Program-made: the position numbers and the translations under genes
Shown: positions 1,040-16,190 of the stretch, piece by piece
Position numbering within the stretch: position 1 is the stretch's first letter
How the letters are laid out: each line of letters starts with the position of its first letter
Notes under the pieces: model-generated
Database searches by the model: none
Told to the model about the DNA's origin: nothing
Seen by the model: only the letters and a program-made list of their open reading frames with translations
NCBI GenBank assembly: GCA_038999435.1
Contig: JAVZYR010000008.1
Coordinates: 1 to 23,671 of the forward strand
Source: Candidatus Aenigmatarchaeota archaeon
GTDB lineage: Archaea; Aenigmatarchaeota; Aenigmatarchaeia; QMZP01
DNA length: 23,671 bases
Direction of reading: 5' to 3'

Positions 1040-1081
1040 AAGGAGGTGATCCAGCCGCACGTTCCCGTACGGCTACCTTGT

Positions 1082-1183
1082 TTGTCGAGTAGAGAGATGT
1101 CTCTCCTATCATTTCTGTAGGTTCAGTGTCAAGCCTTGGATTATTCTACATCCCTACAGATCTATCTGCCCATCTCACCACTT
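1082..1183 (-). ncRNA. 102-nt BHB intron in 16S (E. coli 1499/1500), putative box C/D guide RNA
   Basis: Canonical BHB: GUCG/CGAC helix, bulges UA|A and AA|A, inner stem AGUGG/CUACU; splicing restores AAGUCGUAACAAGG. Contains two segments antisense to the host 16S, each 1 nt upstream of a D-like box. The intron call is firm, the guide function is inferred. Confidence 0.85.
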
Positions 1184-1859
1184 TACGACTTAGCCCTTCT
1201 CGCAGGGACCTGGCTCGATTCTGGCAATAACCAAAAGCTCGCCAGGTCCCCACTCGGCTGGCTTGACGGGCAGTGTGTGCAAGGAGCAGGAACATATTCG
1301 CCGCTAGATGATGACCAGCGACTACTAGGGATTTCGGCTTCACGAGGGCGGGTTTCAGCCCTCGATCCGAATTGAGACCGGGTTTAGGGATTGGCTTCCC
1401 CTTTCGGGGTTGCAGCCCATTGTCCCGGCCATTGTAGGCCGCGTGTAACCCAGGGGATTCAGGGCATACGGACCTGCCGTCGACCGCTCCTTCCTCCCAG
1501 TCATCCCGGGCAGTCCCCTATGAGTGCTTGGCTCGAAAGCCAATAGCAACATAGGGCGCGGGTCTCGCTCGTTACCTGACTTAACAGGACACCTCACGGC
1601 ACGAGCTGACGACGGCCATGCACCACTTCTGAGCGTGTCTGGTAAGGTCTTCAGCCTGACCTTCATTCTGCTCTCGCCCCTGGTAAGGTTCCCCGCGTTG
1701 TGTCGAATTGAACCGCAGCCTCCACCCCTTGTGTGCTCCCCCGCCAATTCCCTTAAGTTTCAACCTTGCGGCCGTACTCCCCAGGCGGCCCACTTAACGG
1801 TTTCCCTTCGACCCTAGCAACCCCCTTAAGGCTGCTAGAATCCAGTGGGCATTGTTTAC

Positions 1860-1907
<48 letters not shown>

Positions 1908-1976
1908 TCCCTCACCGTCGGATCCGTTCTAGTGCAGTGCCTTCGCCATAGGTGGTCCTCTCAGGATTAACGCATT

Positions 1977-2095
1977 CTCGGTCCTTCTTTACGAATTTGT
2001 GCAAGCGAAAGCTGCCGTAAAGAAAGGCAGTAAAGCCTGCATATTTCTTTCGCAAGCGTTTCTTTGTGCAAGCGAAAGCTGCCGTAAAGAAAGGC
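1977..2095 (-). other. 119-nt BHB intron in 16S (E. coli 694/695)
   Basis: CGGU/ACCG helix, bulges AA|G and AG|A, inner stem CCUU/AAGG; splicing restores GCGGUAAAAUGCG. Contains an exact 33-nt direct repeat (1996-2028, 2063-2095). Confidence 0.9.
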
Positions 2096-2783
2096 TTACC
2101 GCTACCCTGAGAATACCCTGCACCTCTCCCGGTCCCAAGTCCTGCAGTATCTCTAACAAGCCCCACAGTTGACTGTGGGATTTCATTAGAGACTTACAGA
2201 ACCGGCTACGAACACTTTAAGCCCAATAATCGTGGTCACCACTCGGGGCGCGGGTATTACCGCGGCGGCTGGCACCCGTCTTGCCCACCCCTTATTCGCC
2301 GAGCTTTTTAAACTCGACAAAAGCCCCTACCGAAGTAAGGGCACTCCGAATCCCTCCGTCGCGCTTGCGCGCATTGCGGAATTTTCGCGCCTGCTGCGTC
2401 CCGTAGGACCTGGATTCTTGTCTCAGAATCCATCTCCAGGCTCCCTCTGTCAAGGCCCGTACCCGTTATAGGCTTGCCAGGACATTACCCTGGCAACAAC
2501 CTGATAGGCCGCAGTCTCATCCTCAGTTCAGTCAGGGCGCAATCTGTAAGCTTTAAAAAATTCATAAAGCCTATTCCAGCCTCCCTGACCTATCCGGTCC
2601 TCGGCCTCAGTTTCCCGAGATTGGACCGGGCCTGAGGGTAGATTGACTACGTGTTACTGAGCCGTTTGCCTTGCAGTCCTAGAAACTAGAACCACAAGAC
2701 TCGCATGGCTTAGCCGGATTCGGATAGCAGTGACCTCCGGCGGGATCAACCGGAATGAAATTGGCGGTTGCTCCTTGTTTTTG

Positions 2784-15533: not shown

Positions 15534-16190
15534 TTAAGGATTAAACTTTAAAACAGCAAACATGTGGTCTTTTTCATAGGGGTCAAGTTCTGTTTTGTCA
15601 ACAAGCGTAAAGCATTCTGCAAGTTTTTTGAATTCCTGCTGATAGATTTCTTTTGGCTCTTTTGTTACATCTATTGACCTTGATTTTATTGCAATAAGCG
15701 CAAATCCACCTGGCTTTAAAAAAATCTTAGCATTTCTGATTGCAATCTCTGATTGATCTGGTGTTGCAACATCCTGATAAAGTATGTCCACCTCCTCTAT
15801 CCAGTCATAATCCTGCGGCCTTCTTGCATCTGCAATCACCGGCATGATGTTCTTTCTTTTTTCAGCAAGTATGAGCAGTTCTCTGAAAGGACGCTCTGAT
15901 ATTTCAATGCCATAAATAAAACCATTGTTGCCAAGTATGTCTGAAAAATATGATGCAGTCTGGCCATTTGCAATGCCAAGATATAGCATTTTTTGTCCAG
16001 GTTTAATAGGCCATTGTTTCAGGCCTTTTATGATTGCTGCTGCTGGTTTTGAACGGTGTGGTTCCCAAACCCTGTATTCCTGTTTTCCAATCATCACAAG
16101 CCTTTCAGAAAAAAAGCGCTGACCTGGTGTTAGATTGGGTGTTAGAAGTTCGCTGTCCTTTTTCCATATGCCAGGAAAGAGTTGTCTCAT
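15534..16190 (-). CDS. flpA: Fibrillarin-like rRNA/tRNA 2'-O-methyltransferase
   Basis: EYRVWEPHRSKPAAAI, LYLGIANGQTAS, DARRP, YQDVATPDQ, KSRSIDVT, LDPYEKDH. Confidence 0.95.
   Translation of the reverse strand: MRQLFPGIWKKDSELLTPNLTPGQRFFSERLVMIGKQEYRVWEPHRSKPAAAIIKGLKQWPIKPGQKMLYLGIANGQTASYFSDILGNNGFIYGIEISERPFRELLILAEKRKNIMPVIADARRPQDYDWIEEVDILYQDVATPDQSEIAIRNAKIFLKPGGFALIAIKSRSIDVTKEPKEIYQQEFKKLAECFTLVDKTELDPYEKDHMFAVLKFNP

Follow-up and report, generated by a model that had tools for sequence, protein, structure and literature searches.

Box C/D guide RNAs encoded within introns are known from euryarchaeal pre-tRNA-Trp, whose intron contains a box C/D sRNA in Haloferax volcanii and, as sR50, in Pyrococcus (review PMC7994747); the preliminary description of the present locus had cited this precedent and the review bears it out. 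The locus described here is similar in that the BHB intron of a gene for a stable RNA contains a guide, here a predicted one, for its own host, and in that guide pairing and the splice-competent structure are mutually alternative. It differs in the host, which is 16S rRNA, and in the target, which is the decoding-site nucleotide C1402. Moreover, the pre-tRNA-Trp intron holds a full C-D′-C′-D sRNA, whereas the intron module is monopartite or permuted (guide, D, stem-loop, C). The same order, with a 5′ guide followed by D box, stem-loop and C box, is found in MMG4 and MMG5, monopartite K-turn/K-loop guides tested in vitro with Sulfolobus proteins (PMC9670817). Those RNAs were engineered, whereas the intron module would be natural and is embedded between the strands of an intron stem. 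Like the 16S introns of Thermoproteales, the intron is of the BHB type, lacks an ORF and is patchily distributed among close relatives; the main text of the study of those introns describes no function for the intron RNA (PMC4496867). In the literature searched, guide RNAs were found in tRNA introns only and none was described in an rRNA intron. To our knowledge, no function had previously been known for ORF-less archaeal rRNA introns.

The modification itself is widespread. Table 2 of PMC11542601 lists Cm at the C1402-equivalent position for E. coli, P. abyssi (Cm1369), yeast (Cm1639), human (Cm1703) and plants (Cm1645 in Arabidopsis), in agreement with the earlier statement that this nucleotide is methylated in bacteria and eukaryotes.

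The intron and its putative guide module

The window, by which we mean the whole 23,671-nt stretch analysed, corresponds to contig C8 in an archaeal assembly of 549 kb that is 86% complete. The DNA runs in which this sequence occurs are hot-spring metagenomes. The features of the 16S rRNA gene discussed below are as follows.

1041 to 2756, minus strand: 16S rRNA gene with introns (Rfam RF01959, 1346.6 bits; 3′ end read directly)
1082 to 1183, minus strand: ORF-less BHB intron of 102 nt at E. coli position 1499/1500; intronless relatives read GUCGUAACAAGG
1081 to 1189, minus strand: BHB splice motif with a 4-bp helix, GUCG (1189-1186)/CGAC (1087-1084)
1088 to 1182, minus strand: basal intron stem, 1182-1171 with 1099-1088 (RNAalifold pairs 10-22 with 100-112)
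1166 to 1174, minus strand: putative guide gX, GAUGGGCAG, antisense to 16S 1399-1407 (9/9 pairs, one G.U)
1265 to 1273, minus strand: gX target, CUGCCCGUC, 16S 1399-1407; C1402 is window 1270 and U1400 is 1272
1161 to 1164, minus strand: D-type box UAGA, preceded by A1165; GA at a fixed offset in 31/31 introns
1114 to 1160, minus strand: stem S, the canonical kink-turn stem, UCUGUAGG (1160-1153) with CCUACAGA (1121-1114) and a 31-nt loop
1106 to 1113, minus strand: C-type strand, with bulge AAU (1113-1111), GA (1110-1109), then UAG
1123 to 1152, minus strand: inner module in the loop of stem S, with C-like GAUGUAGA (1152-1145), gY and D box CUGA (1126-1123)
1135 to 1128, minus strand: second antisense gY, GGCUUGAC, an 8-bp Watson-Crick match to 16S 1405-1412
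1260 to 1267, minus strand: gY target, GUCAAGCC, 16S 1405-1412; N+5 is A1408, window 1264

The Rfam alignment ends at 1156, within the intron, because the 16S gene is interrupted there. The conserved 16S 3′ end, ACAAGGUAGCCGUACGGGAACGUGCGGCUGGAUCACCUCCU, follows the intron at 1081-1041, with the true terminus GGAUCACCUCCU at about 1052-1041. The flanks GUCGUA (last base 1184) and ACAAGG (first base 1081) enclose 102 nt without an ORF, the borders being ambiguous by 1-2 nt because of runs of A, and matches to intronless rRNA contigs of other organisms break off at 1082. Both bulges of the splice motif are 3 nt long, UA/A (1185-1183) and AA/A (1083-1081), where the slash marks the cut; cleavage after the second base of each joins the exons into the sequence found in intronless relatives. 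Weakness of the outer exon-exon helix makes this a relaxed form of the motif, and the 4-bp helix is kept in 7/7 introns of the architecture termed type A below (alignment columns 3-6 with 113-116). Two further insertions in rRNA genes were seen on the minus strand, at 1976-2100 (16S) and 330-530 (5′ domain of 23S), both with internal direct repeats. The 23S insertion holds CUGAAUGAUGUCUGA, a D/C/D-like run, and the 16 nt upstream of its first CUGA gave no match of at least 8 bp (G.U allowed) in the available rRNA; the remainder of the 23S rRNA was not found in the assembly.

The preliminary description had proposed that this intron encodes a guide for its own host rRNA, and the guide, target, A1165, UAGA, 8-bp stem, AAU bulge and C-like strand were all recovered at the positions it gave. 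Rereading of the minus strand also upheld the register: the fifth base upstream of UAGA, G1169, pairs with window 1270, which is C1402, so that the 9-bp antisense, within the roughly 8-12 nt expected of such guides, stands by a D-type box with the predicted target at the fifth paired position. Guide A1167 lies opposite the host U1400 (window 1272). Stem S, the 3-nt bulge and tandem G.A pairs contributed by the C-type and D-type boxes (G1110.A1161 and A1109.G1162, followed by U1108-A1163 and A1107-U1164) have the geometry of a kink-turn.

Two caveats raised at the outset also held. The boxes are degenerate, AUGAUAG matching 5/7 positions of RUGAUGA and UAGA 2/4 of CUGA, with the positions next to the G.A pairs changed to U-A and A-U pairs, and this deviation from consensus counts against the guide reading. 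So does the competing stem, GAGAUG (1176-1171)/CAUCUC (1099-1094), which is part of the basal stem and covers the 5′ half of the guide. The basal stem is present in the minimum free energy fold and shows several compensatory changes among relatives (RNAalifold), and four nucleotides at the 5′ end of the guide are paired in it, so that it must open before the guide could act.

The 9-bp complementarity in the window sequence alone is not beyond chance. When duplexes with the 16S exons of 9 bp or longer and no more than one G.U are counted, shuffled introns average 1.34, 74% of them form at least one, and the window intron itself has a second 9-bp match elsewhere in 16S. Kink-turn-like sites with a stem of at least 8 bp occur twice in the 1722-nt 16S precursor, one of them being the intron module, and the minimum free energy fold of the window intron alone lacks the 8-bp stem S (z = -1.5). 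It is only through comparison with relatives that the predicted module rises above chance.

Conservation and covariation among homologous introns

BLAST searches of 61 related genomes matched 32, and 28 of the 30 loci fetched contained both 16S 3′-end landmarks. In 23 of these 28 the site is occupied by an intron that shares its 5′ part with that of the window, while three were intronless and two held an unrelated intron; the module core is present in 23/25 introns at the 1499/1500 site, in a set obtained with no pattern. Pattern searches added a Hadarchaeota-labelled locus with three distinct similar metagenome contigs, one Micrarchaeota-labelled locus and all three genomes of genus g153 (family f31, of the window's class). 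One pattern with 14 fixed bases matched at least 120 stretches, and among the matches listed nearly all were bacterial and four were usable archaeal 16S loci. Across the phylum set the module was present in 33/371 genomes, 30 of them among the 91 of the window's order, and reversed-pattern controls gave no match in the 371 genomes. The guide core was required by the search patterns, and because the patterns fixed it, its invariance in pattern-derived loci proves nothing.

The spacing and structure around the core are more informative, and they bear out the expectation that homologous introns would keep both antisense and boxes. All 31 distinct introns read AGAYGGGC, then exactly 3 nt, then a 4-nt box ending in GA, and this fixed distance places C1402 at N+5. 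In 29/31 a stem of at least 4 bp starts from the next base and is followed directly by NNU-GA, giving a kink-turn; shuffled downstream sequence yields this combination in 4.4% of trials. The two exceptions have 10 extra nt (L005) or an imperfect stem (L013). The D-type boxes of relatives are mostly UUGA, AUGA or CUGA and their C-type boxes mostly xAUGA(C/U). Stem S is kept while its sequence varies, with 25 distinct stem ends among the 29 introns and four to five pair types at each of the first four pairs; when stem partners are shuffled among introns, 2.7/29 stay paired. RNAalifold recovered the BHB helix, the basal stem and stem S from the seven type A introns, with compensatory changes in 12/27 pairs. 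At one locus, L085, the antisense is retained but xxGA is absent from the fixed position, which counts against the guide reading.

Longer versions of the intron also exist, at 283 nt in L021 (genome G012) and more than 450 nt in L085, where no second exon lies within reach; both retain the 5′ antisense. In L024, L025 and L026 a second short intron, flanked by GCCGUA and AGGGGAACC, lies about 12 nt further 3′. That of L026 contains GGGCAUUAUGA, the same string as the guide end and box in the first intron of L010, which suggests duplication of the module to a site nearby.

No search pattern constrained the guide base that faces 16S position 1400, and this base covaries with the host. Among 27 hosts with U1400, the guide carries A in 26, as the window does, and C in one, and in the C1400 hosts it carries G in 7/7, so that the core GAYGGGC followed by the base matching host 1400 is found in 33/34 distinct loci. 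A pattern that demanded a C1400 host and left the guide base free returned G in all four matches. The C1400 loci comprise the Hadarchaeota-labelled group, the Micrarchaeota-labelled locus and family f31, genus g153 included. U1400, in place of the near-universal C, occurs in all 28 loci read from the window's order, intronless members included, and also in genus g170 of family f40 (L237, L238). Because U1400 marks a clade, the covariation may trace to a single evolutionary event. Within the core itself, variation is confined to the nucleotide facing G1405, which is U or C. Either can pair with G1405, and the basal stem of the intron shows the compensating change (GAGACG with CGUCUC); the same guide nucleotides therefore appear, from these alignments, to be doubly constrained by two alternative pairings. 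With nine pairs, the window guide exceeds that of most relatives by one.

The loop of stem S divides the introns into two architectures. Type A, the minority, comprises the window intron and, from g153 and the Hadarchaeota-like loci together, L159-L161, L047, L155 and L156. In these seven introns an inner C-like/D box pair flanks gY; GGCUUGA is invariant and the D box adjoins the 3′ strand of stem S, which appears from sequence comparison to be bordered by two kink-turns, one at either end. The sequence of the inner C-like box is GAUGAAGA in relatives and GAUGUAGA in the window, where the second G.A pair has been lost (GU for GA), a further point against the guide reading. Pairing of gY amounts to 8 Watson-Crick pairs in the window and up to 10 in g153. 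Its N+5 nucleotide is A1408 in both, shifted by one in the Hadarchaeota-like loci; in S. acidocaldarius and N. equitans, A1408 has been predicted to be targeted by an sRNA (PMC4644070). Type B introns, found in most relatives, have a capped hairpin alone at the place of the inner module. It was also observed that 14/22 type B introns (L002-L037, L171, L183) contain a complement of at least 6 nt (GUGUGC, GUGCAA) to 16S 1387-1398, located 7-10 nt after the C-type box and adjoining the main target, an arrangement seen in 2.8% of shuffles. No D box follows it, and it may be an accessory pairing.

Free-standing guides in relatives and the protein machinery

Five relatives without the module were searched for a free sRNA: the intronless G013, G054 and G040, and G002 and G025, which hold another intron at the site. 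Four of the five proved to contain a canonical box C/D sRNA whose guide core and D-box spacing are those of the intron, with no match in the intronless G040. It has the form AGAUGAUGA, about 10 nt, AUGA, loop, (A)GAUGAUU-AU-GACGGGCAA(U/G)-CUGA, of which the C′-guide-D portion can also be written AUGAUU-AU-GACGGGCAAU-CUGA. Since its D guide has the intron core at the same distance from the D box, this sRNA predicts Cm1402. The sRNA and the intron module are thus alike in core (GAYGGGC(A/G)), D-box register and predicted target. The sRNAs, however, are encoded by genes of their own and have the canonical set of boxes (C, D′, C′ and D), whereas the window element has one good kink-turn, lies inside an intron of its target gene and has no C′ box by the guide. 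The loci found in relatives were as follows.

L214/L201, L215/L202, L217/L191, L220/L205, L230 and L235: free C1402 sRNA loci

At L191/L217 (G025:C122) the sRNA occurs twice, about 500 bp apart, the second copy consisting only of the C′-guide-D half.

The two forms alternate between genomes. In the BLAST-derived set the sRNA is present in 0/23 module carriers versus 4/5 genomes without the module (Fisher test, about 2e-4, with genomes treated as independent of relatedness). A stricter sRNA pattern matched 12/91 genomes of the order (control 0). Matches in G005 and G030 were discarded owing to a coding-like context and the lack of boxes, leaving 10 genomes with the sRNA, eight of them with a canonical C box. 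The order thus contains 10 genomes with the sRNA, 30 with the module intron and none with both; the probability of zero overlap is about 0.014, relatedness not being corrected for. Neither form was found in 51/91 genomes, all of which are incomplete assemblies. Both states occur within genus g11 (intron in G011, sRNA in G033 and G333) and within genus g13 (intron in G035, sRNA in G013). Two genomes of family f40, G362 and G369, combine U1400 and the absence of an intron with a canonical sRNA that carries GGGCAA. The free sRNAs follow the same rule at 1400 as the introns, with GGGCAA where the host has U1400 (g170 included). Guides in g168, another genus of f40, read GGGCG, in assemblies that lack the 16S.

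Another C1402 guide in the window genome, which the preliminary description had named as a check, was sought, and no further C1402 antisense was found outside ORFs in this 86%-complete assembly. One antisense with N+5 spacing, on contig C5 near 18077, falls in a long ORF and was rejected as a chance match. A strict scan of the window genome for canonical double-box sRNAs returned none, which says little because the expression would also miss the AUGAUU C′ box of the relatives. A whole-genome scan for 9-mer antisense with xxGA gave 1208 mostly chance matches and was set aside.

The proteins that such a guide would need are encoded. The window itself contains the methyltransferase:

15543 to 16163, minus strand: fibrillarin gene, the box C/D RNP methyltransferase (PF01269, 266 bits)

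A distance of 14 kb separates this gene from the rRNA operon, which is on the same contig. Together with Nop5 and L7Ae, both encoded in the genome, it completes the box C/D protein set, and the splicing enzymes EndA (PF01974, 62 bits) and RtcB (PF01139, 568 bits) are encoded as well. RsmI, the bacterial protein-only enzyme that makes Cm1402 without a guide, was not found in this 86%-complete genome (TIGR00096). The predicted system would share with RsmI the target nucleotide and the chemistry, and would differ from it in being RNA-guided rather than a guide-free protein. The matching RNA runs cover only conserved exons of other organisms, and the intron is covered by DNA runs only.

A proposed mechanism, its alternatives and their meaning

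The proposal that this BHB intron also serves as a box C/D-type guide for methylation of the rRNA that hosts it has gained support from conservation, covariation, alternation with the free sRNA and the encoded machinery, and we regard it as probably correct. Opening of the basal stem would allow 1174-1166 to pair with 16S 1399-1407, while the D-type GA (1162-1161) and the C-type GA (1110-1109) would form a kink-turn on stem S, 3′ of the guide. L7Ae would bind this kink-turn and recruit Nop5 and fibrillarin, and fibrillarin would 2′-O-methylate the nucleotide paired five positions upstream of the D-type box, namely C1402. The layout of guide, D box, stem-loop and C box would be that of a monopartite guide, in effect a circularly permuted half sRNA, in which the terminal C/D kink-turn of a normal sRNA has its end stem capped by a loop. 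EndA and RtcB would then remove the intron, and the excised, probably circular, RNA could act in trans as well. Such an arrangement would replace the free-standing Cm1402 sRNA of relatives. In mature helix 44 the target pairs with the very strand that the intron interrupts. With 1494-1497 held in the BHB helix and the first four bases of the guide in the basal stem, the methylation-competent and splicing-competent folds would be mutually exclusive.

The position of the intron is also what would be expected if its RNA served as a chaperone or placeholder only, with the antisense and an L7Ae-bound kink-turn keeping 1399-1407, the 5′ strand at the base of helix 44, off 1494-1501 until late in assembly and so timing the folding of the decoding centre or splicing, with no methyl transfer. 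Sequestration of 1494-1497 by the BHB helix fits such a role, as do the additional segments antisense to neighbouring rRNA (gY against 1405-1412 in type A, GUGUGC against 1392-1397 among the 14/22 type B introns) and the antisense of L085, which persists without a D-type box. A placeholder, however, needs no fixed distance between antisense and GA, yet that distance is invariant in 31/31 introns and sets C1402 exactly at N+5; nor would it be expected to alternate with a canonical C/D sRNA in which the D guide keeps to this register. We therefore consider a placeholder without methylation unlikely, while the placeholder and guide roles are compatible with each other.

Alternatively, the module could be the relic of a C/D sRNA, perhaps circular, that was inserted in the rRNA gene or fused to an intron, the window copy now decaying while the methylation guide is supplied otherwise. 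Circular permutation and re-insertion of sRNAs have been proposed for Pyrobaculum (PMC6009581), no other intron of the set has boxes as degenerate as those of the window, whose inner kink-turn is also short of one A, and the unassembled part of this 86%-complete genome could contain a free sRNA. Decay is nonetheless hard to reconcile with a guide, spacing, G.A pairs and stem that are kept across three to four lineages through compensatory changes, with a window guide that has one pair more than most relatives, or with the free sRNA being found in 0/30 module-intron genomes of the order, and we judge a relic to be quite improbable. A chance resemblance, in which the match to 1399-1407 and the kink-turn-like motif would be coincidental features of an ordinary structured intron, agrees with the frequency of 9-bp duplexes in shuffled introns and with the second 16S match in the window intron. 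It would not, however, lead one to expect the conservation, covariation, fixed spacing and alternation with a free sRNA, or the empty reversed-pattern controls (0/371 genomes), and is scarcely credible.

Returning to the reading of the intron as a guide, a more speculative extension is that rRNA introns and box C/D sRNA genes are interconvertible, with a guide moving between them, for example via circular RNA, to leave one guide per transcript, and that the exclusive folds act as a checkpoint through which C1402 is methylated before splicing and closure of helix 44. We put this forward tentatively, as a possibility that is at present the less likely outcome. Were it true, ORF-less archaeal rRNA introns would have a selected function in ribosome assembly, and there would be a natural monopartite, or back-to-back two-kink-turn, C/D RNP.

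What is new here is that the predicted free Cm1402 guide of relatives is found, by sequence, as a module within an intron of its own target rRNA gene. An ORF-less rRNA intron would thereby carry a guide for Cm1402 in the P site of the decoding centre, a methylation reported in bacteria, archaea and eukaryotes, and the principle seen in pre-tRNA-Trp, that of an intron guiding the modification of its own host, would extend to ribosomal RNA. The module would also provide an instance from nature of the minimal monopartite guide, which had until now been demonstrated with engineered RNAs alone. The order of modification, splicing and helix 44 folding in small-subunit assembly becomes testable. Taken together, these data point to the same predicted guide switching between intron and free gene, even within genera, in genome-reduced DPANN-type archaea.
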